A DNA stretch of 64,000 nt, taken from assembly GCA_034189165.1 (NCBI GenBank), contig JAXHVN010000024.1:19818-83817 (forward strand), written 5' to 3'. The notes under the pieces are model-generated. The model saw only the letters and a program-made list of their open reading frames with translations, was not told the origin of the DNA and ran no database searches. Shown here in pieces: positions 8,510 to 44,288 of the stretch. Made by a program: the position numbers and the translations under genes. This DNA is from Pseudomonadota bacterium. GTDB lineage: Bacteria > Pseudomonadota > Gammaproteobacteria > UBA5335. Numbering within the stretch: the first letter of the stretch is position 1; each line of letters begins with the position of its first letter.

Positions 8510-8543
8510 ACCGCACGCGGGACGCGGGCCGGCGGAGTCTGAG

Positions 8544-10227: not shown

Positions 10228-10509
10228 GTGCGCCGGCCCAGGGCTTGGGCGCCAGCCCGGTGGCTGGCCGGCCTCGCCCGTGCCTACTCACGTTTCTATG
10301 GCCACTCAGCGGCGGCGCATCAGGCTCGTCAGCGCCAGCAGGAGGAGGATTTCCTTCGCGTGCTGCTCATCGGTCAGGCGCTGGGGATTCCCGATCCGGC
10401 CGCGTTCTACTGCCTCGAGTTGATGCCCTACCTGCTCGAGGACTATCACGCCTGGCATCGCCGGGTCGGCCTCGAGCGTGCCCCGCCCGACGGGTTCCGG
10501 TGCTGTTGA
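10228..10509 (+). CDS. Small CstA-associated protein ending in Cys-Cys (YbdD/YjiX-like), tentative
   Basis: Starts at GTG 5 nt after the cstA stop and ends ...DGFRCC-stop, like the small proteins encoded downstream of E. coli cstA/yjiY. It has an LIG..GIPD segment. The N-terminal extent is uncertain. Confidence 0.5.
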   Translation: MRRPRAWAPARWLAGLARAYSRFYGHSAAAHQARQRQQEEDFLRVLLIGQALGIPDPAAFYCLELMPYLLEDYHAWHRRVGLERAPPDGFRCC

Positions 10510-11432
10510 AGCCGCAGGCGCCGCCCGTGTGCTTCTTCGGCGGCAAGGGCGGGGTCGGCAAGACGACCTGCGCCGCGGCGATCGCCGCGGCGGTTGCGGC
10601 GCCGGCGGCCAGAACGCTGCTCGTCTCCACCGATCCGGCCCATTCGCTGCGGGACGTGCTGGCGATACCGGGCGAGCTGTCCGCGCCGACGCCCGTGGCG
10701 CCCGCTCTCGATGCGCTGGAACTGGACCCGCAGCTCGTCAAGCAGCGGTATCTCGACGATGTGCGCCGCACGCTGGAGCGGATCGCACCGCCACGATTGC
10801 TGGCCGAGGTGCGCCGGCAGGTGGCGCTCGCGGCCGCGGCGCCCGGTACGACCGAGGCCGCGCTGACCGAGGCGCTGGCGCGGCTGCTTGCCGAGGCACC
10901 GGCGCGCTATCGGCAGGTAGTGATCGACACCGCACCGACGGGGCACACCCTGCAGTTGCTGCAGGCACCGGCGGCGATGCAGGCGTGGATGGATGCGCTG
11001 CTCGCTCGGCGCAGCGAGGCGATCGATCCCGAGGTCGTGGCGCGGCTGCACCGGCGGCGTGGGTATCTGCAGGCCATGGCGGCGCTGCTCGGCGATCCAG
11101 CCCGAACGGCGTTCGTGTTGGTGACGCTGGCCGAGCCCATGGCACTGGCGGAAACGGTGCGGGCGCGCGAGGCACTGAACCGGCTGGGGTTGGCGCCGGC
11201 GGCCATCGTGGTCAACCGGCTGACCCCGGCCGACGCGGCGGGCGGCTGGGCCTCGGCGCAGCACGCGGCGCAAGCCGCCGCGCTGGGCACGTTCGGGCAG
11301 GAGATGACGTGCCCGATCATCCGGCAGGTCGCGTGCCTGCCCCGCCCGCAGGGAGTCGAGGCCCTGCGTGCGGTGGGCGAGGGCCTGCTGGAAGCCGGGC
11401 TGTTCGCGGCTACCGGCAACGGCATCGCCTGA
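10500..11432 (+). CDS. ArsA/Get3-family ATPase (single-domain)
   Basis: P-loop GGKGGVGKTT, STDPAHSL, and the ArsA signature DTAPTGHTLQLL. The GTG start overlaps the stop of the upstream small ORF (GTGCTGTTGA). Confidence 0.8.
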   Translation: MLLKPQAPPVCFFGGKGGVGKTTCAAAIAAAVAAPAARTLLVSTDPAHSLRDVLAIPGELSAPTPVAPALDALELDPQLVKQRYLDDVRRTLERIAPPRLLAEVRRQVALAAAAPGTTEAALTEALARLLAEAPARYRQVVIDTAPTGHTLQLLQAPAAMQAWMDALLARRSEAIDPEVVARLHRRRGYLQAMAALLGDPARTAFVLVTLAEPMALAETVRAREALNRLGLAPAAIVVNRLTPADAAGGWASAQHAAQAAALGTFGQEMTCPIIRQVACLPRPQGVEALRAVGEGLLEAGLFAATGNGIA

Positions 11433-11517: not shown

Positions 11518-12321
11518 TCAGTAGGCGGCGATGCGCTCCTCGTCGGAGATGGCCGTCAGCTTGCGCATCCGGTTCAGGCACTGCGTGACGAAGCCGCCGA
11601 TGCAGAACAGCGCCCAGCCAAGCACCACGAAGCCCCAGTGGATCGGCGCGGCGAACAGCTCTTCTGCGTAGAAGAACGTGTGGCCCCACTCGTTCAGGCC
11701 GAGGTTCGGCATGATCAGGATCGGTCCTGCGGCCATCAGCGCCAGTGGCACCGAAATGCGGTTGGCGAAGTCCGGCAGACGGGTGTGGACCCAGACGAAG
11801 CCGAATACCAGGCCAACGAGCGCCGCAGGAATCGCGAAGTAGAACAGGCCGATGTGGGTCGGCGTGAAGTCGGTATCGCGAATGGTGGTCTGGTGCCAGG
11901 CGGCATCGGCTTCCACGAACAGGCCGAAGGCGAATACCGCCAGGATGCTGGCACCGGCGAGCACCGAAAGCACCCAGTAGTAACGGCGCAGTTCCTCGTG
12001 CGGCGTGATGGCGGCGACGTTCTTGTCCCGCGTGAACCACAGTATCGGCACGATAGCGGCGCCGATCACACCGATGACGACCATCTGGATGTAGAACAGC
12101 CGCATCCAGTAGACCTGGAACTCATCCTCGAAGTAGTCGAGACCGACGGTGAACGAATACTCCTGCTGGTACCAGCGATAGATGCCGAACACCGCTGTGG
12201 CGATCGTCACCAGCAAGGCGACCCAGAGCCAGGGAACCTTCGGCGCGGGTTGATCGGCTGGCGCTGGTGCGACGTGGCGTTCGTCCTGCCGGACGCGCCC
12301 GCCTTCGATGACTGCGCTCAT
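11518..12321 (-). CDS. pmoC: Orphan PmoC/AmoC-family copper membrane monooxygenase subunit C
   Basis: 267 aa with RDTDFTPTH and NEWGHTFFYAEELFAAPIHW motifs. Collinear with the operon-encoded PmoC at 27399..28223. AGGAGGAG RBS before the ATG. Confidence 0.9.
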   Translation of the reverse strand: MSAVIEGGRVRQDERHVAPAPADQPAPKVPWLWVALLVTIATAVFGIYRWYQQEYSFTVGLDYFEDEFQVYWMRLFYIQMVVIGVIGAAIVPILWFTRDKNVAAITPHEELRRYYWVLSVLAGASILAVFAFGLFVEADAAWHQTTIRDTDFTPTHIGLFYFAIPAALVGLVFGFVWVHTRLPDFANRISVPLALMAAGPILIMPNLGLNEWGHTFFYAEELFAAPIHWGFVVLGWALFCIGGFVTQCLNRMRKLTAISDEERIAAY

Positions 12322-12462: not shown

Positions 12463-13533
12463 TCAGTCGCCGAGGCAGATGCCGATCTCACGCGCGGTCT
12501 GAACGGTGTCGCAGTCCAGCGGTACCGAGCGCATCTCGGCGATCGCCGCCTCGATCGGCACCGACACCATGTCCGGCGGCTGGTAGGCCACCATCCGCCC
12601 GAACTCGCCGGCAGCCGCCGTGCGCACCGCCGCCGCGCCGAAGCGCAGCGCCAACATGCGGTCGAAGGCGGTGGGCGTGCCGCCACGCTGGATATGGCCG
12701 AGCACTACATGACGCGTTTCCTTGCCGGTCCGCTGGGCGATCTCCAGCGCGACCTTCTCGGCGATCCCGCCGAGCCGCACCTCGCGCCCGAGCTCACTGC
12801 CGGCGACCGTCAGCTCGCCGCCGCGGGGCTTGGCACCCTCGGCGACACAGACGATGGAGAAGGTGCGGCCGTTGGCCTCGCGCTGGCGGATCTTGTCGCA
12901 GACACGCTCGATGTCGAAGTCGATCTCCGGGATGAGGATCACGTCGGCGCCACCGGCGATGCCGGCGTTCAGCGCGATCCAGCCGGCATAGCGGCCCATC
13001 AGCTCCACCACCATGACCCGCCGGTGCGACTCGGCGGTGGTGTGCAGCCGGCCGATCGCCTCGGTCGCCACCGAGACGGCCGTGTCGAAGCCGAAGGTGA
13101 AGCTGGTGCAGGCGAGGTCGTTGTCGATGGTCTTCGGCACGCCCACGACCGGAATGCCCTTGTCCATGAAGCGCCGGGCGATACGCAGCGAGCCGTCGCC
13201 GCCGATCGCGATCAGCGCATCGCCCCCCAGTGCTCGGAAGCGCTCGACCACCTCGTCCGAGCGATCGACCAGCCGGGTCTGGCCGTCGATCTCCAGCGGG
13301 TACTCGAACGGGTTGCCCTTGTTCAGCGTGCCGAGGATCGTGCCGCCCAGATGGGCGATGCCGCGCACCTGATCCGGCCCGAGCGGCATCAGATCGTCCT
13401 GCAGCAGGCCCTCGTAACCGTAGCGGATGCCGGTCACGCGCCAGCCACGATGCACTGCGCCGAGCGTGAGGGCGCGGATGACGGCGTTCAGACCCGGCGC
13501 ATCGCCGCCGCCGGTGTTGACGAACAGGTGCAT
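12463..13533 (-). CDS. pfk: 6-phosphofructokinase (PfkA family)
   Basis: 356 aa with TGGGDAPGLNAVIR, IGGDGS and PKTIDNDL motifs. Confidence 0.85.
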   Translation of the reverse strand: MHLFVNTGGGDAPGLNAVIRALTLGAVHRGWRVTGIRYGYEGLLQDDLMPLGPDQVRGIAHLGGTILGTLNKGNPFEYPLEIDGQTRLVDRSDEVVERFRALGGDALIAIGGDGSLRIARRFMDKGIPVVGVPKTIDNDLACTSFTFGFDTAVSVATEAIGRLHTTAESHRRVMVVELMGRYAGWIALNAGIAGGADVILIPEIDFDIERVCDKIRQREANGRTFSIVCVAEGAKPRGGELTVAGSELGREVRLGGIAEKVALEIAQRTGKETRHVVLGHIQRGGTPTAFDRMLALRFGAAAVRTAAAGEFGRMVAYQPPDMVSVPIEAAIAEMRSVPLDCDTVQTAREIGICLGD

Positions 13534-18849: not shown

Positions 18850-19794
18850 CTACAGCGGCGGGATCAGCGCCGGCGCATCCAGCGAGATGAAGTGGCTGGT
18901 GCCGGTGGTTTCCACCACGCGCAGGCCCGGCGCCCGCCGCGCCGCCGTCAGCATGGCCTGCCGGTCGAGGATGCGGTCGGTCTGCGGGATCAGTACGCAG
19001 CCCTGCGGCAGGGTCTCCAGCGCGGCAGGGGGTGTCATGCGCATCCAGTCGCGCAGGTTCATCACGTTCACCAGCGTGATGCGGTCGGTACGCGGGGTGT
19101 AGAGCATCGGGTCGAGCAGCTCGCGCTTGCGCGATGAAAGCGGCCGGAACAGCCAGGGTGCGGCCTGCGTGACCGGCACCTGCCGCGCCGCGGCCAGGCT
19201 GAACGGCAGCAGGAATTCGCCCGCGCCGGTGGCGCCGGTGCCGAGAGCCGCTGCCACCGCGCCGCCCGGCAGCACCGGCGCCTCCAGGATCACCTCGGCC
19301 TCCGCGAAGGCTTCCGGCCGCTGGCGCGCCGCCTCCACCACCACGGCGCCGCCGCGAGAGTGCCCGTGCACGCGGACACGCGCCTGCCCGCGCCAGTGTG
19401 CCAGCGCTTCGTTCAGCACCCAGGCATCGTAGGCGATGGTGCCGGGTGTGTAGGGGTTGTCCGTCGCCCAGTCGGCCTCGCGACGCGGCTGTTCGCCATC
19501 CGGGATGTGATAGCCACCGCTGTTGATGCCGAGATAGGTGAGGGTAGGATCGCGGTAAAGCGCGCCGAAGTAGCGCATGTCCTCGAGAAACCCGTGCATG
19601 CAGATCACCACGGCGCGGGGATTGCCCGTGGCCGTTCGTACGCCGACCGCCGCCTCCCCGGCAGCGAAGATCTCGCCGTCGAAGGGCTCCTGCACGCGCC
19701 GGGGGATGGGGCGGTCGAGCAGGCGGGGCCGCAGGCGGCGCGCGCCGAAGGCGGTGACGGCCGTGGTGGCGGCCAATAGCAGGGGTCTGCGCAT
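18850..19794 (-). CDS. Alpha/beta hydrolase
   Basis: 314 aa with the nucleophile elbow GHSRGG and an N-terminal signal/anchor. Confidence 0.75.
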   Translation of the reverse strand: MRRPLLLAATTAVTAFGARRLRPRLLDRPIPRRVQEPFDGEIFAAGEAAVGVRTATGNPRAVVICMHGFLEDMRYFGALYRDPTLTYLGINSGGYHIPDGEQPRREADWATDNPYTPGTIAYDAWVLNEALAHWRGQARVRVHGHSRGGAVVVEAARQRPEAFAEAEVILEAPVLPGGAVAAALGTGATGAGEFLLPFSLAAARQVPVTQAAPWLFRPLSSRKRELLDPMLYTPRTDRITLVNVMNLRDWMRMTPPAALETLPQGCVLIPQTDRILDRQAMLTAARRAPGLRVVETTGTSHFISLDAPALIPPL

Positions 19795-23834: not shown

Positions 23835-24683
23835 CTAGTAGCCGCGCCGCGCCGCCAGCCGCTCGATCCGCCGTTGCAGCCGCGGCCGCAGCCGGGCGGT
23901 GGCCGCGATCATGGTGCCGGGGAAGAACCGGCGCACATGCCGCACCAGGCGCGCATCCCAGGTCGGCATCACGTACAGCCGGTTGCGGGCGATCTGCCGC
24001 AGCGCGCTGGCAGCGATGCGCTCGGGCGTCACCGGGTTGCCCTCCAGCGCCATGCGGGTAATGCCCTGCAACGCCGGCGTCGCCACGCGGGTGCGCTGGT
24101 AGAGGTTGGTGCGCACGAAGCTCGGGCAGATCACCGAGACGCGTACCCGCTGCGGCGCGAGTTCCGCCCGCAGCGTCTCCGAGAGCATCACCACCCCGGC
24201 CTTGGACACGTTGTAGAGCGCCATCCCCGGCATGGCGCCAAAGGCGGCGAGCGAGCCGGTGTTCACCAGATGCCCGCCGCCCTGCGCGAGCATGATGCGG
24301 CCGAAGCTGCGGCAGCCGTTGACCACGCCCAGCAGGTTGATGTCGAGCAGCCAGCGCCAGTCCGCCGGCGGAATGTCGAGGAAGTCGCCGCCGCTGGCGA
24401 CGCCGGCGTTGTTGAAGGCCAGGTCGATGCGGCCCATCCAGTCGCGGCTGGTGCTGGCCAGTGCCTCGACCGCATCGGCGTCGGCGACATCGCAGGTGAT
24501 GCAGCGGGCCTGCGCGCCCCGCGCCTCCAGCTCCCGGCAGACGGCCTCACCCTCGCCGGCATCGAGATCCGCCACCACCACCTGCGCCGCCCCGGCCTCG
24601 GCCATGCCCAGCGCAAACGCCCGGCCGAGCCCGCTCGCGCCGCCGGTCACCACGACGCGCTTACCTCGATAGTAGTCTCGCAT
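23835..24683 (-). CDS. Short-chain dehydrogenase/reductase (classical SDR)
   Basis: TGGASGLG, NNAG and YNVSK motifs. Same strand as, and downstream of, pmoCAB-MAPEG. Confidence 0.85.
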   Translation of the reverse strand: MRDYYRGKRVVVTGGASGLGRAFALGMAEAGAAQVVVADLDAGEGEAVCRELEARGAQARCITCDVADADAVEALASTSRDWMGRIDLAFNNAGVASGGDFLDIPPADWRWLLDINLLGVVNGCRSFGRIMLAQGGGHLVNTGSLAAFGAMPGMALYNVSKAGVVMLSETLRAELAPQRVRVSVICPSFVRTNLYQRTRVATPALQGITRMALEGNPVTPERIAASALRQIARNRLYVMPTWDARLVRHVRRFFPGTMIAATARLRPRLQRRIERLAARRGY

Positions 24684-24780
24684 GCTGAACGCTCCCCGCT
24701 TTGCTGACCCTGAGCATAGGACAGGACTCGCGCCGTTCGAGCCGGCCCATCGCCAGCGGCCTGGCGGCGCGTCGGGGGTG

Positions 24781-25158
24781 CTAGTTCATGATCTGCAATA
24801 GCGCCCAGAGGCTGGCCACCAGTTCCAGCAGATAGGTCAGGCCGGCGCCGCTGCGCCGCGCCGGCCGCACGCCGGCGAGCATGCCGGCGGCGTGGAGCAG
24901 TCGCGTCAGCAGGAAGGCGAGCACCAGCGCCAGCATCGCGCCTTCGTTCGCGCCCTCCAGCACCAGCGCCAGTACCAGCAGGCCAACCGGCATGCCGTGC
25001 TCGACCAGGTTCGCGTGGGCACGGATGGCCCTGCGCAGCGCCTCGATGTCGCCGTGGCCGAAGGACACCTGATGACGCACCCGCAGGCGTGAAATATTGA
25101 TCGACAGCGCCAGCAGCAGCAGCATTGTCAGCGCCGCGTACAGCGTGAACACCCACAT
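24781..25158 (-). CDS. MAPEG family membrane protein (YecN-like)
   Basis: 125 aa with 3-4 TM helices, collinear with E. coli YecN (RLRxxxxVxxGxG...A.R.H.N..E). The start is 41 nt after the pmoB stop, with its own RBS. Confidence 0.75.
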   Translation of the reverse strand: MWVFTLYAALTMLLLLALSINISRLRVRHQVSFGHGDIEALRRAIRAHANLVEHGMPVGLLVLALVLEGANEGAMLALVLAFLLTRLLHAAGMLAGVRPARRSGAGLTYLLELVASLWALLQIMN

Positions 25159-25199
25159 CGCTCCCTCTCCCCTGTCAGAGCCCGCGGCGGCCGCGAGCC

Positions 25200-26525
25200 T
25201 CAGGCGTCCGGCCGCATGCCGGGCAGCGGTGAGCGTACCAGCTGCAGGTTGTCGAGTTGCTCTGACCCAGCGGGCGTGATGCTGAACTCCGGCGTGATGC
25301 GGGTGCCGATCTCGCGCACGTAGCGATTGCCGGCCGGGTCGTAGAAGAACAGCAGACCGGCGATGCGAAGATCCGGCTCGGCCACGATGTCCACCAGCCG
25401 CTGTTCCTCCCAGATCGCATCTTCCAGCTGCAGCGTCAGCCGCGTGCTGGCTCCCGGCGCCAGCGTCCGGCGGTTCACGCTGAGGCTATCCGGGGCCACC
25501 ATGTCGTAGTCGTCCTCGCGCCGCGCCTCGACGACCTCACCGTTGGTGAAGCGCACGTAGCCGGCCACGAACTGCCCCACGGCCAGCGGCGTCTCGGTGC
25601 CGTTGGCGACGGTGAGATCCAGGGTGAGCGTGCGCCGCGGCAGGTTGAAGCGGGCCTGGTGGATCTCGATGTCGATCGGCGCCTGTGCGCCCGGCAGTGG
25701 CAGCACCGGCGCCTCCACGCGCCCGGTCTGCAGCGGCATGGTGATGGGATAGCGAGCGTTCGCCCACAGCGCGATACCGGCGGTCAGCCCCAGCACCAGC
25801 GCCAGGAACAGCCCGCTGACGATGATGTCCTGCCAGCCGATCAGGCGGCGTTCCGCCTCCGCCTCGCCCAGCTCCTGCACCGCCACATAGCGTCGCATCA
25901 TCACCGGCAGGCGACGGAACCAGTACCCGATCCACAGCAACCCGACCAGCAGCCACACCAGATGCACGCCCGACATGGTGCGCAGCCCGTACTGCTCGAC
26001 CTCGACGCGCTCGCCGTTCAGCAGCACCGCCTCGTTGACGAAATGCGCCGCATCGCCGGTGATCTCGACGAAATGCGCCGGTCCGATCACCGGCCCGGCC
26101 TCCCAGACGTTCACCAGCGGATGCACGTGCCAGATGCCCGGCACACGCGCCTTCAGTTTCACCTCGTAATCGTAGAACTCGCCCCGCCGCAGCGCCGTGG
26201 ACTGCAGCTGACGCATGCCATTGATGGTGGTATCGAGCCGAATGAAGGTCGGCCCCGGCACGCCGATGTTCAGGAATACCCACTCCTCCGGCTTGGCCAC
26301 GTAGTCCGGCCAGTGTTCGGAGACCTTGAAGCGCCCACGCACGGTCACCACCTCGTTTACCGCTACTTGGCGGGGCTCGATCTGCGTGTCGAACCAGTGG
26401 ATGGTACGCATGCGGATGCCCGCCATCTGAGCGATCTCGCCGTGGGCGAAGGTGGCCGGCGGCAACGCCAGCAGCAGGAGCAGCGGGGCGGCGAGCAGGC
26501 ACCGCACGAGGCGTGGACCGGACAT
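25200..26525 (-). CDS. pmoB: Copper membrane monooxygenase subunit B (PmoB/AmoB family)
   Basis: Signal peptide ...PPATFA followed by HGE, then RTIHW, WHVHP, two central TM helices and a C-terminal cupredoxin-like domain (AGLLFFYDPAGNR). I chose the internal ATG at 26525 of ORF 25200..27242, with a GGAGG RBS. Confidence 0.9.
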   Translation of the reverse strand: MSGPRLVRCLLAAPLLLLLALPPATFAHGEIAQMAGIRMRTIHWFDTQIEPRQVAVNEVVTVRGRFKVSEHWPDYVAKPEEWVFLNIGVPGPTFIRLDTTINGMRQLQSTALRRGEFYDYEVKLKARVPGIWHVHPLVNVWEAGPVIGPAHFVEITGDAAHFVNEAVLLNGERVEVEQYGLRTMSGVHLVWLLVGLLWIGYWFRRLPVMMRRYVAVQELGEAEAERRLIGWQDIIVSGLFLALVLGLTAGIALWANARYPITMPLQTGRVEAPVLPLPGAQAPIDIEIHQARFNLPRRTLTLDLTVANGTETPLAVGQFVAGYVRFTNGEVVEARREDDYDMVAPDSLSVNRRTLAPGASTRLTLQLEDAIWEEQRLVDIVAEPDLRIAGLLFFYDPAGNRYVREIGTRITPEFSITPAGSEQLDNLQLVRSPLPGMRPDA

Positions 26526-26536
26526 TGGCGGCCTCC

Positions 26537-27325
26537 TCAGAGCAGCTTGGTCATGAAGGCCGGTCGGGCGCTCTTCGAGCCGATCCACACGAAGACGTAG
26601 TACACGAGGATCGCGAAGAATCCGGCGACGAAGGCGGTGACCGGCGCGACATGGCCACCGAAGGTGCGCAGGGTGCCGTATTCGATGATGCGCACATATT
26701 CGGGCATCGCCGTGCGGATGTACTGGAAGCCCATGTAGTCGGCCAGCGTGATCACCGATTCGCCCACCTGCACCGGCATGTGCATGGGCGCCACGGTCGG
26801 CCAGTTCATGGGATAGAACAGCAGCCCGAAGAAGAATCCGCCGACCAGGCCGGTGATGGCGAAGCTGCGCGTGATCAGCAGCGTCGCGTCGAGGAACACC
26901 GCGGCGCCGATCCACACCTCCGGCATCACCCAGTTCATCGGAAAGCCGGTGAACAGGTGGAAGTTCACGTAGCGGCTGATCATCTGCGAGAGCAGGTAGC
27001 CCACGGCGACCGCCGTGGCCGCCACCGGCAGCTTGAAGTACTTCCAGAAGGCGTAGGTGAGCACCGCCGGCAGCGTCAGCAGTAGCAGCGGCGTCAGCAG
27101 CGGCCACCAGCGGCGATCGCGCCAGTCCTGCCAGTAGCTCCAATCGCCGATCGTGAGCGCCCCGAGGAACACGGCGGCGCCGCCGATGAGGATCGCGATC
27201 AGCGGGAAGAACATCAGGTCGATGTTCTTCCATGCCTCCCACTGCTCGCGCGCCGTGTGCAGCGCCGGCCTGGCCGGCGGCGGCGCGGCGTCTGCCTGCG
27301 GATTGAGTTCCAGAGCCATCATCAC
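26537..27325 (-). CDS. pmoA: Copper membrane monooxygenase subunit A (PmoA/AmoA family)
   Basis: 262 aa, collinear with PmoA (GDWSYWQDWRDRRWW, FYPMNWP, PEYVRIIEYGTLRTFG). GGAGGTG RBS. Confidence 0.9.
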   Translation of the reverse strand: MMMALELNPQADAAPPPARPALHTAREQWEAWKNIDLMFFPLIAILIGGAAVFLGALTIGDWSYWQDWRDRRWWPLLTPLLLLTLPAVLTYAFWKYFKLPVAATAVAVGYLLSQMISRYVNFHLFTGFPMNWVMPEVWIGAAVFLDATLLITRSFAITGLVGGFFFGLLFYPMNWPTVAPMHMPVQVGESVITLADYMGFQYIRTAMPEYVRIIEYGTLRTFGGHVAPVTAFVAGFFAILVYYVFVWIGSKSARPAFMTKLL

Positions 27326-27398
27326 CTCCTGACGGTGGCGCCGTGGCGGGCAGTGGCCCGCGCGGCCGGCGCCCGGCGCATCCCTGTGTCTGCTGGGC

Positions 27399-28223
27399 CT
27401 AGTGCTCGGCGGCCAGGCGTTCGATTTCCTCGTAGGAGACGACGTGCATCAGCTCGCGCATGCGCTGCAGGCACTGCACGACGAAGCCGATCAGGAACAC
27501 GAGGAAGAAGCCGGCCAGCACGAAGAACCAGTGCACCGGCGCGGCGAACAGTTCTTCCGCATAGAAAAAGGTGTGCGCCCATTCGTTGAAGGCCACCACC
27601 GGGCCGACCATCATGAAGCCGAGGATGGCGACCGAGAACGGCACCGAGATGCGGCTGGTGAAGATCGGCAGGCGCGTGTGCACCCAGATCCACGCCAGGA
27701 TCAGCGCGCCCCAGGCGACGGGAATGCCGAGGTAGAACAGGAAGATGTGCGTCGGCGTGAAGTCGGTATCGCGCACCACCACCTGATGCCAGGCGGCATC
27801 CGCCTCGGTCAGCAGCCCCAGCGCGCTGACGATGGCGATCGCGGCGACGGTGAGGATGCCGAACATCGCGTAGAACCGGCGCAGTTCATCGTGCGGCGAG
27901 AGCGACATGATGTCGCGGTCCCGCGTCAGCCACAGCGCCAGCGCGCCGAGTCCGCCGAGCACCGGGATCGCGATGATCTCGGTGTAGAAGATCGACATCC
28001 AGTAGGTCTGGAACTCGTCGGAAAACGAGTCCATGCCGACGGACCAGGAAAAGGCGTGCTGGTACCACTTGACGGCCGTCAGCGCCGCGAACACCAGGGC
28101 AGTGATGCCCAGCGCCCAGCCCCAGGGGACGCGGGGCGGCCCCTCGGTCGGTGGGGGCGCATCGGGCCGCCGTGCGAGTGGACGGCTCCGGCTGGTACCG
28201 ATGTCCTGCGTGATGCTGCTCAT
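27399..28223 (-). CDS. pmoC: Copper membrane monooxygenase subunit C (PmoC/AmoC family)
   Basis: 274 aa from the ATG at 28223 (AGGAGAG RBS), with VRDTDFTPTH and NEWAHTFFYAEELFAAPVHW motifs. Confidence 0.9.
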   Translation of the reverse strand: MSSITQDIGTSRSRPLARRPDAPPPTEGPPRVPWGWALGITALVFAALTAVKWYQHAFSWSVGMDSFSDEFQTYWMSIFYTEIIAIPVLGGLGALALWLTRDRDIMSLSPHDELRRFYAMFGILTVAAIAIVSALGLLTEADAAWHQVVVRDTDFTPTHIFLFYLGIPVAWGALILAWIWVHTRLPIFTSRISVPFSVAILGFMMVGPVVAFNEWAHTFFYAEELFAAPVHWFFVLAGFFLVFLIGFVVQCLQRMRELMHVVSYEEIERLAAEH

Positions 28224-28281
28224 TGTCTGTCTCTCCTGCGCTCGCAGGGCGAGCGCGCCGGTGGTGTTCGAACGACCCATG

Positions 28282-28310
28282 ACATATCGACTGACTGAAC
28301 GGTCGTTTAA
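28282..28310 (-). promoter_or_regulatory. Candidate promoter of pmoCAB (TTAAAC-17-ATATGT), sharing a sequence block with the orphan pmoC promoter
   Basis: The minus strand reads ATTAAACGACCGTTCAGTCAGTCGATATGT, compared with ATTGAACGTTCGTTCAGGCCGATCTATCTA at 12379..12410. An alternative TTGACA-17-TAGCCA lies about 30 nt further upstream. Confidence 0.35.
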
Positions 28311-28404
28311 TTCATGGCTAGTAGCGGCCCGGTCTGATGTCAAGGGACACGACGGCGCAGCGCGAGCTCGGTAGCATGAGTGCGGGCGTTCGGGAGCCGG
28401 CGGT

Positions 28405-28872
28405 ATGGGCAACAAGCAGATCGTGGTGGTGGCGCACGCGCCGTCACCGAACACGCGGCGGATGCTGGACGCCCTCCTGCGCGGGGCGGCCCTTCCGGAC
28501 ATCGATGGCATCGAGGTGTGTCACGTGGCGCCGCTGGAGGCAGGGCCGGAGGACGTGCGCGAGGCGGATGCCGTGATCTTCGGCACGCCGGAGAACCTCG
28601 GTTACATGAGCGGCGCCCTGAAGGATTTCTTCGATCGCAGCTACAACGCGCTGCTCGATTGCACGCAGGGCAAGCCCTACGCGCTCTACGTGCGGGCCGG
28701 CAAGGATGGCACCGGCACGCTGCGCGGCGTGGAGACGATCCTTACCGGGCTGCGCTGGCGCGCCGTGCAGGCGCCGCTGGTGTGCCGGGGCGAGTTCGAC
28801 GAGCGCTTCATCGCCCAGTGCGAGGAGCTGGGCACGACCGTGGCCGCAGGGCTGGAAGCCGGTGTCTTCTAG
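28405..28872 (+). CDS. Flavodoxin-like NAD(P)H-dependent FMN reductase family protein
   Basis: 155 aa with a flavodoxin-fold pattern (IVVVAHAPSPNT...ADAVIFGTPENLGYMSG). Divergent from pmoC. Confidence 0.7.
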   Translation: MGNKQIVVVAHAPSPNTRRMLDALLRGAALPDIDGIEVCHVAPLEAGPEDVREADAVIFGTPENLGYMSGALKDFFDRSYNALLDCTQGKPYALYVRAGKDGTGTLRGVETILTGLRWRAVQAPLVCRGEFDERFIAQCEELGTTVAAGLEAGVF

Positions 28873-28897: not shown

Positions 28898-32758
<3,861 letters not shown>

Positions 32759-32769
<11 letters not shown>

Positions 32770-34021
32770 GGCTGGCTCCGGATTTTTCCAGTTCGGCCTT
32801 CAGCAGATAGCTGTTGCCGGTGACGTATGCCGTGCCAGGGCGCAGCCCGGCCAGGACCTGCACGTGTTCGCCATCGGCGGGTCCGAGCGTCAGCACGCGC
32901 ACCTCGTACTGCTCGCCGATCCGGGCGAAGACGACGTCGAAGTCCCGCCAGCGCTGCAGCGCCCGCGCCTCCACCACCAGCGGCGCCTCGTGCACGGCGG
33001 TGACGACCTCGCCGCGCACGGCCATGCCCGGGCTCCAGGTGCCCGCGGCGTTGTCCAGCACCACGCGGGCGTGGCGGGCCGGGCCGGCCGTGCCGCCCGG
33101 GGCGAGATAGTCGATGCGCCCGCTCGCGGCCGGCCCGGCGCCGTGCAGGCGCACCGGCTGACCTACGGCGATGGCGTTGGCCTGGCTCGGGAAGACGGCG
33201 AGTTGCGCCCAGAGCGTGCCGAAGTCGGCGAGAATCAGCAGCGGCCCCGCGGTCACTTCGCCGGGATCGGCGAGCCGCTCGATGACGATGCCGTCCATGG
33301 GCGCGTGGAGCGCGTAGCTGCGCAGGCTCTGGTCGGCTTCGATCGTCGCCAGCCGCGCGCCGGCCCGCACCCGATCGCCTACCTGCACGGCGACCGACTG
33401 CACCACACCGGGGAAGCGCGCCCCCAGTCGGCGCACGCGCGCCGGATCGGGCTCGATATGCCCGTAGAACGTCAGCGTCTCGCGCACCACGCCCGGCCCG
33501 GCCCGTGCGGTGGTGATGCCGGCCTGCGCGGCGATGCGCGGCTCGATGCGCGTGCGGCCCTCGTGGCTGGCGTACGTCCAGTGGGCCCGCTGGCGGCCGA
33601 TCTGCACGGCGATCGAGACGTCGAAGGAGTGCGGTTCGGTCACCGGATCGGCGCTGCGCAGGTAAGTGGGCGCCGGCAGCAGGCGCAGCCGTTCCGGTGA
33701 CTCGCCCAGACGCGTCAGCGTAACCGTCGCCTCCAGGGCGCTCGGCGGTACCGGCTCGCCGGCCTCCCACGCATACAGGCGCAGCTCCGGCGGTACGCCC
33801 TGTTCGAACAGGGCGATCTCCACTGCGAGGTCGCCCTCGCGCAGCAGCCGCCCGCCATGTGGGCCTGTGGGCGCCTCGCCGCCGGTGCCGTCGGCCCCAA
33901 TGGCCCCGCCCCCGGTGGGCGTGTCAGTGCCGGCCGGTGCCTCGGGCGCGGGCTGGCAGCCGATGAGCAACAGCGTCAGCAGCACAAAGAAGGGGCCACA
34001 GGTCCGGCGGCTAGTGATCAT
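32759..34021 (-). CDS. czcB: Efflux RND periplasmic adaptor (CzcB-like)
   Basis: Lipoprotein-like signal (LLLIGC) and barrel-sandwich/beta-barrel MFP pattern. I chose the internal ATG at 34021, which overlaps the czcC stop. Confidence 0.8.
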
Positions 34022-35309
34022 GGGTCTGCTCCCGAAGGGTGGCCTCGGGCAGGTCGAGCAGCGGCGCGCCCGCCAGTCGTTCCAGTTCCACCCGGGTGGC
34101 GTGGGCGTGGGCAATGGCGTCGATCAGCTCGGCGCGGGCCTCCAGCAGCGCCTGCTGGGCGCTCGACCATTCCAGATAGCCATAGCGCCCGCGCAGGTAG
34201 GCCGCACGTGTTTCGGTCAGCGCCTGTTCGAGTTGCGGGATCACCTCACGGCGCAACATGCGCACCTGTTCAAGCGCGTGCAGGCGTTCCTGATAGATGC
34301 CATAGAGGGCGGTGCGCAGCTGCAGCAGGGCGGCCTCGCGGTCGAAGTCGACGGCGCGTGCCTGGGCCTCGGCGGCCAGCCGCTCGCCGGTGAGCCGGCG
34401 CGCCGGGAACAGCGGCACGGCGGCGCCGACGACCAGCGCGTTATCACCGGTCGTGCCCAGACGGCGGACGCCACCCGTCATACGCACCTCGCCGCGGCCG
34501 CGCGCCTGTGCCAGCGCCAGCTCCGCCTGCCACAGGCGGCCCTCGTCGGTGAAGCGGGTGATGTCGGGGTTGTCCACGACCGCGTCGAGCAGTGCCTGCA
34601 GGTCGCCCGGATCTCCCACGCTGGCGAAGGCCGCGGTGACATGGGGAAAGTCCGGCTCCAGCTCGCCCCAGGTGGCCGCGAGGGTCACGCGGGCCGCACG
34701 CAGCTCGTGTTCGGCGTGCTCTAGCTCGAGCCGGGACACGGCCAGCGCGGCTTGTGCCCGGGCACGCTCGGCCCCCGGCGAGCGGCCGGCCTGCACCAGT
34801 CGCTCGGTGGTCGCCAGGCGCTGGCGGGTCAGCTCGATCGCTTCCCGGGCCAGGTCCAGCCGCGTCTGGCTGGCGGCGACGGTGATGTAGCGTTGGGCGA
34901 CGCTGGCCAGCAGGTCCAGCACGGCAATGCGCTCGCCGGCCTCTGCCAGCGTGGTCCGGGCGTCTGCCAGGTCGATCCGCGCCTGGCGCTGGCCGCCCAG
35001 TTCCACCACGTGCGAGAGCGCGAGGGTGCGTTCCGAGCCGCCCGTGCCGCTGGCCTCGCCGGTGCCGAAGACGTTTTCCACTTCGGCGCCGAGGATGAGC
35101 GGTGGGCGCAGCGCGGCCGTATAGCGGCCGGCGGCCGTGGCTTCCCGCCGCCGTGCCAGCGCCTGCAGTGCCGGCTGCCCGGTCAGCGCCGCTTCCATGG
35201 CCGCGCGCAGCGTCAGCGGGGCAGCTGCCGGCGGCGGAGCCGCCAGCGCACCGGCGCAGGCGACGGCGGCAGCAGCCGTGGCTGCCAGCCGCGAGAATGT
35301 TGCAAGCAT
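34011..35309 (-). CDS. czcC: TolC-family outer membrane efflux protein (CzcC-like)
   Basis: Signal peptide and Ala/Leu/Arg-rich coiled repeats typical of OMF proteins. First gene of the czc cluster. Confidence 0.8.
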   Translation of the reverse strand: MLATFSRLAATAAAAVACAGALAAPPPAAAPLTLRAAMEAALTGQPALQALARRREATAAGRYTAALRPPLILGAEVENVFGTGEASGTGGSERTLALSHVVELGGQRQARIDLADARTTLAEAGERIAVLDLLASVAQRYITVAASQTRLDLAREAIELTRQRLATTERLVQAGRSPGAERARAQAALAVSRLELEHAEHELRAARVTLAATWGELEPDFPHVTAAFASVGDPGDLQALLDAVVDNPDITRFTDEGRLWQAELALAQARGRGEVRMTGGVRRLGTTGDNALVVGAAVPLFPARRLTGERLAAEAQARAVDFDREAALLQLRTALYGIYQERLHALEQVRMLRREVIPQLEQALTETRAAYLRGRYGYLEWSSAQQALLEARAELIDAIAHAHATRVELERLAGAPLLDLPEATLREQTHDH

Positions 35310-37866: not shown

Positions 37867-38874
37867 TCAGGCCTCGCCGGCCAGCAGGGCGTGGATCTCG
37901 GCGGTGATCTCGTAGGAGCGCCGGCGCGCGGCGTGGTCGTGGATCTGCGAGGTGATGATCAGCTCGTCCGGACGGGCCGCGGCGATGAACTCGCGCAGCC
38001 GACGCCGCACCGTGTCCGGTGCGCCGATGGCGCTGGCGGCCATGATCTGGCCCAGCAGCGCCCGCTCGGGGGCGGGCAGCCGCTCCAGAAAGTCCGGTAC
38101 CGGCGCCGGCAGCCGGTCCGGCCGGCCTCGCCGCAGCGCCAGGAAGGCCTGCGCCATCGAGCTGGCCAGCAGTCTCGCCTCCGCATCGCTCGGCGCCGCG
38201 AAGACGTTGTAGCCGAGCATGACGTAGGGCGCGGCCAGCTGGGCAGATGGCCGGAAGCGCCGCCGGTACAGGGCGATGGCCTCGTGCAGCTGCGCCGGCG
38301 CGAAGTGGGAGGCGAAGGCGTAGGGCAGGCCCAGGGCGGCCGCCAGCTCGGCGCCGAACAGGCTCGAGCCGAGGATCCAGACCGGCACGTTCGTTCCCTC
38401 GCCGGGAATGGCGCGGATCGCGCCGTCGGCGGCGGCCGGACCGAGGTAACCGAGCAGCTCGGTCACATCCTGCGGAAAGCGCTCGGCACTGGCCAGCAGG
38501 TCGCGCCGCAGCGCCCGCGCCGTCGCCTGGTCGGTGCCCGGCGCGCGGCCGAGCCCGAGGTCGATCCGCCCGGGGAACAGGCTCGCCAGCGTGCCGAACT
38601 GCTCGGCGATCACCAGGGGCGCATGGTTGGGCAGCATGATGCCGCCGGCGCCGACGCGCAGGCGTTCGGTGGCTGCCGCTACCCGGCCGATCACCACGGC
38701 CGTGGCGGCGCTCGCGATGCCGGGCATGCCGTGGTGCTCGGCCAGCCAGTAGCGCGTGAAACCCAGCTCTTCGGCGTGCCGGGCGAGATCCACGGTATTG
38801 GCCAGGGCCTGCGCGGCGTCAGCGCCTTCCGGGACCGGCGCGAGATCGAGAACGGAGAAGGGAATCATGGCCAT
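37867..38874 (-). CDS. LLM-class flavin-dependent oxidoreductase (YhbW/MsnO8-like)
   Basis: [11 protein letters not shown]...[14 protein letters not shown]...[11 protein letters not shown] is the luciferase-like monooxygenase pattern. The start is either 38874 or 38868. Confidence 0.8.
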
Positions 38875-39104
38875 GAGGTGAGGGCGGACGGCAGCCGGAT
38901 CAAGGCGTGGCGCGGCGTGCGCCAGTGTCCCGACGCCGGGCCGTCGCCGCCGCCATTCCGGCCCCGGCAGGCTCACCCTGCCGGAGCCCCGACACCTGGC
39001 GGGCCGACGATCGGCGGCGCCAGACCTGCCCTGGATCAAGCCGAGGCGGCGTTGCTGGCATATCCTTGTGACGGCCGGAGGCGGAGTGTGACCGGAATTT
39101 CAGC

Positions 39105-39788
39105 ATGGCGAGAAGAACCAAGGACGAGGCGGAGGCAACGCGGGAACGGATTCTCGAGGCCGCCGAGCGGGTATTCCTGCAGCGCGGCGTGGCGCGCACG
39201 ACGCTGGAGAACATCGCCTGCACCGCGGGCGTCACACGCGGCGCCATCTACTGGCATTTCCACAACAAGCTGGAAGTGTTCGAGGCGGTGCTCGATCGTG
39301 TGCAGCAGCCGATGTTCGCCTCGCTGATCGGTCTGCCGGACGAGCAGGAGGCCAGCCCCCTGGAGGCACTGCACCGGCTCTGTGCCTGCGCCTTCCGTCT
39401 GCTGACCACGGATGCCCGCTATCAGCGTGTCTACACCATCTTCTATCACCGCTGTGAGTTCGCGCCGGAATTGGCCGATTCGCTGCGCCAGCGGGCGGAG
39501 GCCGTGGAGCAGATCCTGCGCGCGCTGGAGCGCTACTTCGCCCGGCCGCACAACCGCGCCCGCCTGCGTCCCGGCCTGACACCGGCGCTGGCAGCGCGGA
39601 TGGTGCACGTGTACGTGTCCGGCCTGCGCTACGACTGGCTGCGTGCGCCGGCCAGCTTCGACCTGCCGGCGCACTGGGAGGCACTGCTCGATGCCTTCTT
39701 CGCCGGCCTGGTCACGCCGGCAGTGGCGCAGCCGGTGCCGGACGCGGCCGCCCCGGCCGAGCCCGAACGCCGCGCCGCCCGGCGCTAG
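39105..39788 (+). CDS. TetR/AcrR family transcriptional regulator
   Basis: N-terminal HTH ([40 protein letters not shown]). Confidence 0.85.
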
Positions 39789-42700
39789 CGGCCGCCCTCG
39801 CCGCCGGGAGCGGCCGAGCGATCCTCGGCCTCGGCCGCCCGGCGCTTGCCGCCGAACCGTTCGCTCGCCGCCTCGATCAGGCGATAGAACAGCGGCACGA
39901 AGATGATCGCCAGCAGCGTCGCCCCCAGCATGCCGCCGATCACGCCGGTGCCGATGGAGTGCCGGCTGCCGGCGCCGGCGCCGGAGGCGAGCGCCAGCGG
40001 CACCACGCCCATGATGAACGCCAGCGACGTCATGATGATCGGCCTGAATCGCAGCCGCGCCGCCTCCACCGCCGCGTCCCAGGCGTTCTTGCCGGACTGG
40101 CGGCTGAGCACGGCGAACTCGACGATCAGGATCGCGTTCTTCGCCGCCAGTCCGATCAGCACCAGCAGGCCCACCTGGAAGTACAGGTCCACGTTCAGCC
40201 CGCGCAGCCAGATCGCGAGAATGGCACCGAACACGGCGAAGGGCACTGCCGTCACCACCGCGAGCGGCAGCGCCCAGCGCTCGTACTGGGCGGCGAGGAT
40301 CAGGAACACCATGACGATGCCGAAGACGAACGCCAGCTGGCCGCTGCCGCTGGCCTCGATCTCCTGATAGGCGGCGCCGGTCCAGCCGAGCTGGTAGTCC
40401 TCGTCCAGCGTCTGCGCAGCGACCGCCTGCATGGCCGCGATCGCCTGACCGGAGCTGTAGCCGGGTGCGGGATCCCCCATGATCTTGGCCGCCGGAAACA
40501 CGTTGAAGCGGTCGATCAGGTCCGGCCCGCGGGCGCGCTCCGCGCTCACCAGCGAGGCGACGGGGATCATCTGGCCGCCGGCCGAGCGGACGAAGACATC
40601 ACGCAGATCGCCGGCTTCCTCGCGGAATTCCGCCTCCGACTGCACGTTGACCTGATAGTTGCGGCCGAACAGGGTGAAGTCGTTGACGTACAGCGAGCCG
40701 AAGGTGCTCTGCAGCGTCTCGTAGACCATGTCGATCGGTACGCCCAGCGCCCGCGCCTTCTCCCGGTTGACCACCAGGCGATAGTTCGGCACCTGGGTGC
40801 TCAGCGTGCTGCGCACCCGGGTGAGCTCGGGCCGGCCGTTCGCCGCCTGCACCAGCTTGCCGGCGGTGGCCTCGATCTCGGCGGCCGGCGCCGCGGCGCG
40901 GCTCTGCAGGTAGGCCTCGAAGCCGCCGGTGGTGGAAATGCCGGTGATCGGCGGCGGGTTGAACGCGAGCACGTTCGCCTCGGGAATGCCGGCGCCGATG
41001 CCCATCACCGCGTCGGCGTAGCTCTGCGCGTCCTGCCCCGGCGCGGTGCGCTCGTGCCAGTCGGTCAGCGTGATGAACGAGGCGCCGGCATAGCTCTTCA
41101 GCGCGCCGGCCAGCAGATCGTAGCCGGCGAAGCTGGTCATGCCGCGCACCATGTCGTCCTCGACGACCTGTTCGGTGAACTCCTGCACGGCGGCCTGGGT
41201 GCGATTGAGCGAGGCGGCGGCCGGCAGCTGGGTCACGGCGATCACATAGCCTTGATCCTCCGGCGGCACCAGGCCGGTCGGCACCCGTGCGAACAGCGCC
41301 ACGGTCAGCGCGATCAGGCCGGCAAACAGCACCGTACCCAGCACCGCACGGCCGAGCAGGAAGCGCACGCTGGCGAGATAGCCGCCGGTCAGCGCGTCGA
41401 AGGCGCGGTTGAACCAGCGGAATGGCGCCCAGGGCTCGCCGTGCGTCGGCTTGAGGATCAGGGCGCACAGCGCCGGCGTGAGGGTGAGGGCGACGATGCC
41501 GGAGATGACCACCGAGACGGCGATGGTGATGGCGAACTGCCGATACATCACGCCGGTGAGTCCACCGAGAAAGCCGACCGGCACGAACACCGCGACCAGC
41601 ACCAGCACGATCGCGATCACCGGCCCTGTGACCTCCTGCATCGCCTTGATCGCCGCCTCGCGTGGTCCGAGGCCTTGCTCGCGCATGATGCGCTCGACGT
41701 TCTCCAGCACCACGATGGCGTCGTCCACCACGATGCCGATCGCCAGGATCATGCCGAACAGCGTCAGCAGGTTGATCGAGAAGCCCAGCAGATACATGCC
41801 GGCGAAGGTGCCGACCAGCGAGACCGGGATCGCCAGCAGCGGGATCAGCGTCGCGCGTACGTTCTGCAGGAACAGGAAGACCACCACCACGACCAGCACC
41901 AGCGCCTCGATGAAGGTGTGCACCACCTCCTCGATGGACACTTCCACGAAGCGGGTGGTCGTGAACGGGATGGTGTATTCCAGCCCGGGCGGGAAGCGCG
42001 CCGCCAGCGCCTGCATCTGTGTCCGGACGGCCTGGGTCGTGTCCAGGGCGTTGGCGCCGGGCTGCAGGTAGAGCGCGATCGGCACGGCCGGCTCGCCGTT
42101 GAAGGTGCCGGAGAACTGGTAGGTCTGGGCGCCGAGCTCGACGCGGGCGATGTCCTTCAGGCGCAGCGCCGAGCCGTCCGGATTGGCGCGCACGATGATC
42201 TCGCGGAACTGCTCGACGTCCGAGAAGCGGCCTTCGGTGGTCACGGTGTAGGTGAAGGCGACCTGCTCACCCATCGGCGGCGCGCCGATGCTGCCGGCGG
42301 CGGCCTGCGTGTTCTGCTCGCGCAGCACGGCGGCGATGTCGCTCGGGGTGAGGCCGTACTGCGCGAGCTTGTCCGGCTGCAGCCAGACGCGCATGGAATA
42401 GTTGGCGGCGCCGAACAGCTGCGCATCGCCCACACCGGGAATGCGCTTGAGCTGGTCGATGATGCTGACCAGCGCGTAGTTGCTCATGAACAGCCGGTCG
42501 TAGCGCCCGTCGGGCGAGGTCAGCGTCACCAGCGCCAGGATGGAGCTGGAGCGCTTCTGCACCGTCACGCCCTGCTGGCGCACCTGGTCCGGTACGCGCG
42601 GCAGGGCCGCCTGCACCCGGTTGTTGACATCGATGGTGGCCTGGTCGGGGTCGCTGCCGATGTCGAAGAACACCGACATGCGCATGGTGCCGGCATCCGA

Positions 42701-42949
42701 ACTGGTCGAGCGCATGTAGATCATGTTCTCGACGCCGTTGACCTGCTGCTCGATCGGCGCGGCGACCGTCTCGGAGATGGTTTGTGCGCTGGCGCCCGGG
42801 TAGCGCGCGTCCACCACCACTTCGGGTGGCACGATCTCCGGGTACTGCTCGATCGGCAGTGTGGTCATCGCGCCGAGGCCGGCCAGCACGATCACGATCG
42901 AGAGCACCGTGGCGAACACGGGCCGGTCGATGAAGAACCGGGAGATCAT
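39785..42949 (-). CDS. Multidrug efflux RND transporter permease (AcrB/MexB-like, HAE1)
   Basis: 1054 aa. [24 protein letters not shown] start and 12-TM RND architecture. Confidence 0.9.
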
Positions 42950-44205: not shown

Positions 44206-44242
44206 GAACTGGTGCCGGCAGGAGGGGGAATCCAGCGGGCCA

Positions 44243-44288
44243 TTCTGACATACAGCCGTGTACGTATATACGGCCAGGATATGACAGT
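44243..44288. promoter_or_regulatory. Imperfect dyad upstream of the acrA-like gene (candidate operator/promoter)
   Basis: CTGACATA...CGTATATACG...TATGACAG, with a perfect 10-bp palindrome CGTATATACG at 44263..44272, 58-67 nt upstream of the ATG. Confidence 0.35.

Follow-up and report, generated by a model that had tools for sequence, protein, structure and literature searches.

A putative hydrocarbon-type copper membrane monooxygenase operon and its genus-specific neighbours in a high-GC gammaproteobacterium

The window analyzed here is a 64,000-nucleotide stretch of a gammaproteobacterial genome of the UBA5335 lineage (assembly GCA_034189165.1, contig JAXHVN010000024.1, positions 19,818 to 83,817). 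It contains a pmoCAB operon, which encodes the three subunits of a copper membrane monooxygenase (CuMMO), followed on the same strand by genes for a MAPEG-family membrane protein and a classical short-chain dehydrogenase/reductase (SDR), and preceded by a divergent gene for a flavodoxin-like protein, FMN_red. A model-generated reading of the sequence, here called the first-pass annotation, had proposed that these genes work together in hydrocarbon oxidation. Our results support a hydrocarbon-type enzyme related to those of Candidatus Macondimonas, an oil degrader, and suggest that the neighbours are probably incidental to it. The features of the locus, in window coordinates, are as follows.

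27399-28223, minus strand: pmoC, first gene of the operon, 274 aa (Pfam PF04896 at 3.5e-60, 203.8 bits, cut-off 26.7)
26537-27325, minus strand: pmoA, 262 aa when read from a GTG start (PF02461 at 5.9e-74, 249.4 bits, cut-off 27.5)
25200-26525, minus strand: pmoB, 441 aa (PF04744 at 9.3e-112, 374.4 bits, cut-off 22.7)
24781-25158, minus strand: MAPEG, YecN-like membrane protein, 125 aa (PF01124 at 5.3e-18, 65.8 bits, cut-off 23.4)
23835-24683, minus strand: classical SDR, 282 aa (PF00106 at 1.7e-50, 171.7 bits)
28405-28872, plus strand: FMN_red, 155 aa (PF03358 at 8.7e-9, 35.6 bits against 24, residues 45-121)
28898-29272, plus strand: DUF2237 protein, 124 aa, directly 3' of FMN_red (PF09996 at 3.7e-52)
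28224-28404, no strand assigned: divergent intergenic region between pmoC and FMN_red, 181 bp, the presumed promoter region of both genes

The Pfam assignments of all six genes from the SDR to FMN_red exceed the gathering cut-offs. The five co-oriented genes run on the minus strand from 28223 to 23835 in the order pmoC, pmoA, pmoB, MAPEG, SDR, separated by spacers of 73, 11, 41 and 97 nt, and 181 bp separate pmoC from FMN_red. The first-pass annotation had given the same coordinates for the three pmo genes (28223 to 25200), the same canonical C-A-B order and exactly these spacings, including those to the MAPEG gene, the SDR gene and the divergent flavodoxin-like gene. For pmoA, the ATG at 27319 appears more likely to be the start than the GTG at 27325. 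It lies 5 nt past a GGAGG and yields a protein of 260 aa, lengthening the spacer from pmoC to 79 nt, and independent gene calling produced the identical 260-aa PmoA (P0001) on 14 contigs.

Each gene of the series has a recognizable ribosome-binding site: GGAGG 5' of pmoA and pmoB, as had been claimed for the pmo genes, AGGAGAG 5' of pmoC, GGGGAGAGGGAG 5' of MAPEG and GGGGAG 5' of the SDR gene. A consensus scan detected no terminator-like sites on the gene strand across the region, and the pmoC-pmoA, pmoB-MAPEG, MAPEG-SDR and post-SDR spacers fold no more stably than shuffled sequence; the earlier statement that MAPEG has its own ribosome-binding site and no terminator before it is thus borne out. 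Between 28224 and 28404, no sigma-70-like site emerged from the consensus scan, and there was no Rfam match.

The locus is a genuine three-gene CuMMO operon as judged from its sequence: all three subunits are intact, contiguous and on one strand, and the CuB, CuC and CuD ligands of the solved structures of the particulate methane monooxygenase (pMMO) and of the ammonia monooxygenase (AMO) are all retained. Specifically, alignment to 3rgb_A equates PmoB H28, H43, H133 and H135 with Methylococcus capsulatus H33, H48, H137 and H139, where H28, H133 and H135 are CuB ligands and H43 is the bis-His-site residue. The PmoB signal peptide ends in ATFA immediately before His28, so that His28 would become the N-terminal residue, as an N-terminal histidine brace requires. 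Relative to M. capsulatus PmoB, the protein has a C-terminal extension of 27 aa. The operon PmoC aligns to solved PmoC chains with E of about 5e-52 and carries a CuC-type site (D142/H146/H159) and a CuD-type site (N213/H217/H231). In other words, the ligand-type motifs that the first-pass annotation had picked out by eye in PmoB and PmoC align with the copper ligands of known structures.

We searched for relatives of PmoA in one genome per species (185,579 species, GTDB release 232). The 80 GTDB loci discussed below are those with the best PmoA relatives; GTDB holds more than 258 CuMMO loci. No methanotroph or nitrifier is among these 80. The nine best matches (75-77% identity at full length) belong to Candidatus Macondimonas and allied metagenome-assembled genomes (MAGs). 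In an alignment of 228 columns, PmoA is 82-84% identical to the PmoA of nine Macondimonas/UBA5335 operons that we call 'a' operons, and in a neighbour-joining tree of 91 sequences, built from these columns with 60 bootstraps and two outgroup sequences (one pMMO, one AMO), it is sister to them in 40 of 60 replicates. The next clade out is recovered in 50 of 60, and the larger clade around it, made up of CuMMOs from uncultured Gammaproteobacteria, in 60 of 60. PmoA therefore falls outside the methanotroph and ammonia-oxidizer clades, and its grouping with the Macondimonas/UBA5335 clade supports the hydrocarbon type proposed by the first-pass annotation. The enzymes of that clade have already been published as pHMO or PhmCAB, putative short-chain alkane monooxygenases, from genomic inference.

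To more distant groups, PmoA shows low identity throughout. PmoA is 41-42% identical to both the M. capsulatus PmoA and an AmoA from AMO, with nearly equal bit scores (208 and 202, respectively), 40-41% identical to actinobacterial Hmo sequences including that of Mycolicibacterium chubuense NBB4, and 46-50% identical to the CuMMOs of Betaproteobacteria and Nevskiales. It scores below the NCBIfam and TIGR equivalog cut-offs (264 against 290 bits for AmoA_BACT, 241 against 318 for TIGR03080), as does the operon PmoC (215 against 319 for the NCBIfam AmoC, and 193 against 281). PmoB passes one model, AmoB_BACT NF041640 (434.6 against 336 bits), and fails TIGR03079 (334 against 395). Because it passes NF041640, the NCBI pipeline names it 'bacterial ammonia monooxygenase, subunit AmoB'. 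The approximately 57 open reading frames (ORFs) covering the window include no member of the PQQ-dependent methanol dehydrogenase, hydroxylamine oxidoreductase (HAO), CopC or CopD families, which confirms the earlier statement that copCD and genes for methanol or hydroxylamine oxidation are missing from these 64 kb. As candidates for a PmoD-like accessory protein, we considered nearby hypothetical proteins of 127, 189 and 150 aa and rejected them; they have no NCBIfam or Pfam match, and no PmoD-specific search was made. Taken with the pMMO of M. capsulatus Bath and the AMO structures 9cl6, 9leg and 9pxf, the window enzyme shares subunits, gene order and CuB/CuC/CuD ligands, and differs in the PmoA distance, the failed equivalogs of PmoA and PmoC, and the lack of copCD, methanol dehydrogenase and HAO genes in the window.

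The closest named systems are the Macondimonas 'a' operons, which have the same C-A-B order and whose PmoC and PmoB are 72-75% and 62-65% identical to those of the window. Macondimonas genomes contain additional pmoC copies, as does the window (see below); published accounts describe these extra phmC copies and, in MAG analyses, pathways of alkane-derived acyl-CoA. The differences lie around the operon. Macondimonas GC content is 0.58-0.64, against 0.69 in the present host; an acyl-CoA synthetase gene lies directly upstream of pmoC in Macondimonas and not in the window; and the Macondimonas operons have no MAPEG or SDR gene downstream and no FMN_red or DUF2237 gene upstream, so that the neighbourhoods have nothing in common. 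More distantly, the CuMMOs of Polaromonas and Rhodoferax (Betaproteobacteria) and of Solimonas, Sinimarinibacterium and Nevskia (Nevskiales) are part of the same wide proteobacterial radiation of hydrocarbon-type enzymes and agree in gene order and ligands, but their PmoA (46-50%) forms a separate major branch of the tree. The betaproteobacterial hosts, Polaromonas and Rhodoferax, use alkanes. HmoCAB of M. chubuense NBB4 and pBMO of Nocardioides CF8 are likewise CuMMOs with a role in neither methane nor ammonia oxidation, and are cited as butane monooxygenases (PMC6215863); their operons are plasmid-borne, whereas the present one is chromosomal and surrounded by housekeeping genes. The sequence comparisons thus support a hydrocarbon-type CuMMO that belongs to neither of the canonical clades, methane or ammonia, and is related to the Macondimonas enzymes.

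If the genes around pmoCAB were its functional partners, as the first-pass annotation proposed for the MAPEG, SDR and flavodoxin-like proteins, their adjacency might be kept among relatives. With one exception it is not: about 100 other CuMMO loci lack the arrangement and one near relative keeps it, so that the unconserved adjacency that the first-pass annotation had itself named as refuting its proposal holds for every relative but that one. The pmoB-MAPEG-SDR adjacency was found only in the same species (loci L081-L087 and L104) and in one sister species, on a 1.3-kb JGI contig (L098) with 85.6% nucleotide identity that contains pmoB, a 40-nt gap, MAPEG and the start of the SDR gene (MRDYYRGKGV). 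Since the window and L098 are separated by a dS of only 0.3-0.5, shared synteny is expected regardless of function. Elsewhere, tblastn and a purpose-built MAPEG hidden Markov model revealed no MAPEG, SDR, FMN_red or DUF2237 gene beside pmoCAB in the 80 GTDB loci, and none was present in 11 other JGI metagenome loci or in five loci with 65-74% identical PmoA (among them the P0002 and P0005 loci).

Within the closest clade, the only conserved neighbour is the AMP-binding acyl-CoA synthetase gene directly upstream of pmoC (L001, L003, L004, L005 and L007); the other neighbours are housekeeping genes that vary by genome. There is no AMP-binding gene anywhere in the window. Homologues of the window MAPEG with about 50% identity adjoin pqiA/mlaD, ppx/ppk or a peptidase gene. 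Two SDR matches 7-8 kb downstream of pmoB (L032 and L034, 39-42% identity) are separated from it by several genes on both strands, and we judged them coincidental. MAPEG genes of another sort do occur upstream of pmoC, encoding proteins of 135-190 aa, at 5633-6118 in L001 (PF01124 at 1.1e-22) and also in L003, L006, L009 and L106. The order in L001 is thiolase, electron-transfer flavoprotein (ETF) beta, ETF alpha, MAPEG, a gene of unknown type on the opposite strand, acyl-CoA synthetase and pmoCAB. We rejected an ancestral MAPEG-CuMMO linkage: the Macondimonas MAPEG is a distant paralogue and not an orthologue of the window MAPEG, to which it is 44% identical over only 50 residues. A MAPEG gene 6.6 kb from an SDR orthologue in L119 was likewise set aside, as it has no tblastn match to the window MAPEG at E <= 1e-6.

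Some of the same-species loci lie in assemblies of uncertain nature. L082 (GCA_002896275.2 MPLZ02078490.1) and L083 (GCA_002998485.1 PVBE011862438.1) are contigs of 366-494 kb with the exact operon, in assemblies whose contig accessions reach tens of thousands to millions, which suggests bulk metagenome assemblies or bacterial sequence within a eukaryote assembly.

The MAPEG protein itself appears well preserved. Its residues 46-53, RAHANLVE, match the helix-2 motif R-x-H-x-N-x-x-E that it shares, along with the four-helix fold, with LTC4 synthase, MGST2 and mPGES-1, and it keeps R26, G34, R46, N50, E53, R86 and R101, which are all the invariant columns of 33 YecN-like sequences. The AlphaFold model (pLDDT 97.1) places helices at 2-29, 39-67, 72-95 and 98-124 and, in a Foldseek comparison, has TM-scores of 0.84-0.87 to mPGES-1, MGST2 and LTC4S (4al0, 6sss and 3leo). 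In sequence, it belongs to the bacterial YecN-like subfamily and is only 18-24% identical to these enzymes; a sequence search of PDB entries returned no significant match (E of about 0.5), and there is no NCBIfam model for YecN-like MAPEG proteins. Our literature search found no record connecting MAPEG to a CuMMO, in agreement with the first-pass annotation, which knew of no such linkage.

The SDR gene, convergent with nadE, encodes the expected motifs of a classical SDR (TGGASGLG at 13, NNAG at 91, and the triad S144/Y157/K161), the class to which the first-pass annotation had assigned it. A specific substrate class could not be assigned: its PDB matches are generic SDRs, and it reaches no NCBIfam equivalog cut-off. 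The SDR has a different usual partner. In all three contexts examined (L116, L117 and L119), which include a beach-sand metagenome contig and a MAG with CuMMOs on other contigs, SDR orthologues of 57-68% identity directly follow an alpha/beta-hydrolase gene, and in L116 the hydrolase and SDR orthologue genes overlap. The window contains an orthologue of this hydrolase:

18850-19794, minus strand: alpha/beta-hydrolase, 314 aa (Pfam Abhydrolase_6)

By tblastn, this hydrolase is 50% (L116), 43% (L119) and 34% (L117) identical to the product of the gene that directly precedes the SDR orthologue. In the window the two genes are about 4 kb apart, with nadE, a DUF2061 gene, an FNR-like reductase gene and an ORF of 189 aa intervening on the opposite strand, which implies that a local rearrangement has split the usual pair. 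The spacer in front of the SDR gene holds one further feature:

24708-24727, minus strand: conserved block GTCCTG(T)CCTATGCTCA(G/A)GG between MAPEG and SDR, ending the spacer's conserved part about 25 nt upstream of where the SDR gene starts

In the two sequences compared, the window and L098, these 18-20 nt are perfectly conserved while the surrounding spacer has diverged, and the pmoB-MAPEG spacer is far less conserved. The block is a candidate SDR promoter (with a -10-like TATGCT) or operator, a hint that the SDR gene may be under separate control.

The divergent gene, FMN_red, encodes a short, WrbA-like protein of flavodoxin fold. In the PDB it matches a flavodoxin and WrbA NAD(P)H:quinone oxidoreductases weakly, and it falls far below the equivalogs (24.2 against 141 bits for PRK03767, 24.2 against 206 for flavodoxin and 19.2 against 132.5 for TIGR01755). 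No homologue lies near any other CuMMO locus among the 80 GTDB and 11 JGI loci.

We examined base composition across the window, which has a mean GC of 0.69. The first-pass annotation had described the pmo genes as visibly less GC-rich than their surroundings; the dip exists and is small, with the operon at 0.669 against 0.694 +/- 0.018 in equal-sized windows (10th percentile). It gives no sign of foreign origin. GC at third codon positions (GC3) is 0.89-0.92 in the pmo genes against 0.88 for the average gene, and in codon usage they rank with the least deviant genes of similar length. The dip arises at codon positions 1 and 2 and reflects the amino-acid composition of hydrophobic membrane proteins. 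We therefore rejected recent horizontal transfer: GC3 and codon usage are native, and no tRNA genes, Rfam elements, insertion sequence elements or flanking repeats were found in the window. Elsewhere the window consists of ordinary chromosomal sequence, with his genes, tatABC, ribonucleotide reductase, phosphofructokinase (PFK), nadE and two acyl-CoA dehydrogenases, and it also carries efflux systems of the CzcCBA and AcrAB types. A heavy-metal-type RND efflux operon (29262-35309, minus strand) adjoins the DUF2237/FMN_red/pmo cluster and encodes an OEP outer-membrane factor, a CzcB-like adaptor, a small BV97_02767 protein and a 1045-aa ACR_tran pump. Farther on, a gene for a luciferase-like flavin monooxygenase (PF00296; 37867-39039, minus strand) adjoins a TetR regulator and an AcrB/HlyD-type RND pair (39105-44373), and the region 37867-44373 could be another hydrocarbon- or xenobiotic-related cluster.

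The first-pass annotation had overlooked a second pmoC gene, which lies about 15 kb away from the operon and adjoins neither pmoA nor pmoB:

11518-12321, minus strand: orphan pmoC, the second in the window, 267 aa, six of six CuC/CuD-type ligands present (PF04896 at 1.4e-71)

Its flanking genes encode an ArsA-like ATPase (10245-11432) and PFK (12463-13533). The orphan PmoC shares only 50% identity with the PmoC of the operon, less than the 57-64% that it shares with PmoC proteins from other CuMMO operons of Gammaproteobacteria. A second class of Macondimonas-type loci, which we call 'b' loci (L013, L014, L016-L019, L021 and L024), has pmoA and pmoB, and no pmoC upstream was detected by tblastn at E <= 0.01 (over a full 10 kb in L013, L014, L017 and L024). 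Their C subunit must therefore be encoded elsewhere, and orphan pmoC genes such as that of the window may serve such loci. The Thiotrichaceae MAG WDNA12_bin.8 (L012) shows another unusual arrangement, with two pmoC-like stretches upstream of pmoA (6766-9176). The second is split into adjacent alignment segments at 8455-8928 and 8925-9176. This pattern suggests that pmoC was duplicated in tandem, with a frameshift or an assembly error.

The reading that we favour, and consider moderately probable, is that the locus is a self-contained hydrocarbon-type pmoCAB operon, similar to pHMO/PhmCAB, in an ordinary chromosomal region of an uncultured gammaproteobacterium of 69% GC, with incidental neighbours. 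The CuMMO would form an (alpha-beta-gamma)3 membrane complex in which O2 and a membrane-derived reductant, probably quinol, drive the hydroxylation of a small hydrocarbon, most likely a C2-C4 alkane and possibly alkenes too. The alcohol product would be handled by enzymes encoded elsewhere. MAPEG, SDR, FMN_red and DUF2237 would be genus-specific neighbours and not conserved components of the system; MAPEG would probably be transcribed by read-through from pmoCAB, and the SDR would be an ancestral resident of the region, normally paired with the alpha/beta-hydrolase. The divergent orphan PmoC may supply an alternative C subunit.

Several observations weigh against incidental neighbours or against the substrate just named. 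The assignment to short-chain alkanes draws on phylogeny and on published inference, and so is itself provisional. The order pmoB-MAPEG-SDR is retained in the sister species, where MAPEG has a dN/dS of 0.20, indicating purifying selection (the PmoB C-terminus has 0.14, at dS 0.3-0.5). MAPEG probably shares the pmo transcript, given that it follows pmoB by 41 nt, has a ribosome-binding site and is preceded by no terminator. In four Macondimonas-type loci, a second and only distantly related MAPEG gene is located about 3 kb upstream of pmoC, and two or three independent MAPEG-CuMMO proximities in about 45 lineages, a fuzzy count, exceed a crude base rate of about 1% per locus. Lastly, the modelled fold of the MAPEG protein resembles that of LTC4 synthase. 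That enzyme opens an epoxide by glutathione conjugation.

These points bear most directly on the proposal that pmoCAB, MAPEG and SDR, with the divergent FMN_red, form a genus-specific alkene module, in which the CuMMO would epoxidize a short alkene, MAPEG would conjugate the epoxide with glutathione in the membrane, the SDR would oxidize the resulting hydroxyalkyl-glutathione and the flavoprotein would feed quinol. Such a module would be the CuMMO counterpart of the isoprene pathway of Rhodococcus sp. AD45, where a monooxygenase is followed by the glutathione transferase IsoI and the dehydrogenase IsoH (PMC5864225), and a related CuMMO in Haliea is reported to serve ethylene assimilation (PMC4036023). 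Five closely spaced same-strand genes that have ribosome-binding sites and lack terminators between them, an order kept in the sister species, and a MAPEG under purifying selection that has all invariant residues and a fold like those of LTC4S and MGST2 are all consistent with it. We nevertheless consider it unlikely. The linkage is missing from about 100 other CuMMO loci, the nearest clade among them, and is shared only by two genomes so close that synteny is expected anyway. SDR orthologues pair with a hydrolase gene in a setting that has no CuMMO, and this is so even in a MAG that bears CuMMOs; the block conserved between MAPEG and SDR also hints at separate control of the SDR gene. Close MAPEG homologues are scattered beside unrelated genes, and the match of FMN_red to WrbA-like proteins is weak and truncated. 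The parallel with AD45 is also loose: IsoABCDEF is a soluble di-iron enzyme, its glutathione transferase is soluble and not a MAPEG protein, and the isoprene clustering is kept across isoprene degraders, whereas the present cluster is restricted to one genus.

A narrower alternative keeps only MAPEG as a partner: a co-transcribed membrane glutathione transferase or peroxidase protecting the cell against lipid peroxides or against reactive co-oxidation products of a promiscuous copper oxygenase, with SDR and FMN_red unrelated. The 41-nt gap, ribosome-binding site and missing terminator would suit it, as would purifying selection on a well-conserved fold and the second, independent MAPEG near pmoC in Macondimonas-type loci. 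In our judgment it is improbable, since most CuMMO loci have not kept a MAPEG gene, and the Macondimonas MAPEG follows ETF genes, with an opposite-strand gene and the acyl-CoA synthetase gene standing before pmoC; moreover, activity in the YecN-like family, which has no NCBIfam model, is a prediction from fold only.

The enzyme might instead act on other substrates, either ketones such as acetone or larger or oxygenated hydrocarbons, in which case the nearby SDR would reflect secondary-alcohol or ketone chemistry. An acetone-oxidizing pMMO homologue from a verrucomicrobium is documented (PMC8630023), the substrates of the present clade are known from inference alone, and classical SDRs perform generic alcohol and ketone chemistry. 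No positive evidence points this way, and the acyl-CoA synthetase and acyl-CoA pathways of the sister clade fit terminal alkane oxidation better, which makes this reading quite doubtful. It is very improbable that the operon encodes a canonical pMMO or AMO whose C1 or nitrogen pathway lies elsewhere in the genome: identical copper ligands and the NCBI name of PmoB would allow it, but PmoA is equidistant from both enzymes, PmoA and PmoC fail four of four equivalog cut-offs, and neither the 80 best relatives nor the genes of the window lead to methanotrophs or nitrifiers.

Of practical consequence is the NCBI label of AmoB on this PmoB, which is likely to lead to false calls of nitrifiers and could inflate nitrifier counts in metagenome surveys. 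Should the alkene module prove correct, it would give a YecN-like MAPEG protein from bacteria its first assigned physiological role and reveal a new way of handling epoxides after a copper oxygenase. Under the reading that we favour, of a self-contained operon, the enzyme adds to an already known but biochemically unexplored kind of CuMMO. Hydrocarbon-type CuMMOs are widespread in uncultured Proteobacteria of oil-affected and subsurface habitats, and almost none has a measured substrate. To these the locus adds a lineage of high GC, sister to the enzymes of Macondimonas, one in which, as in other lineages, the pmoCAB module occupies a chromosomal context of its own.

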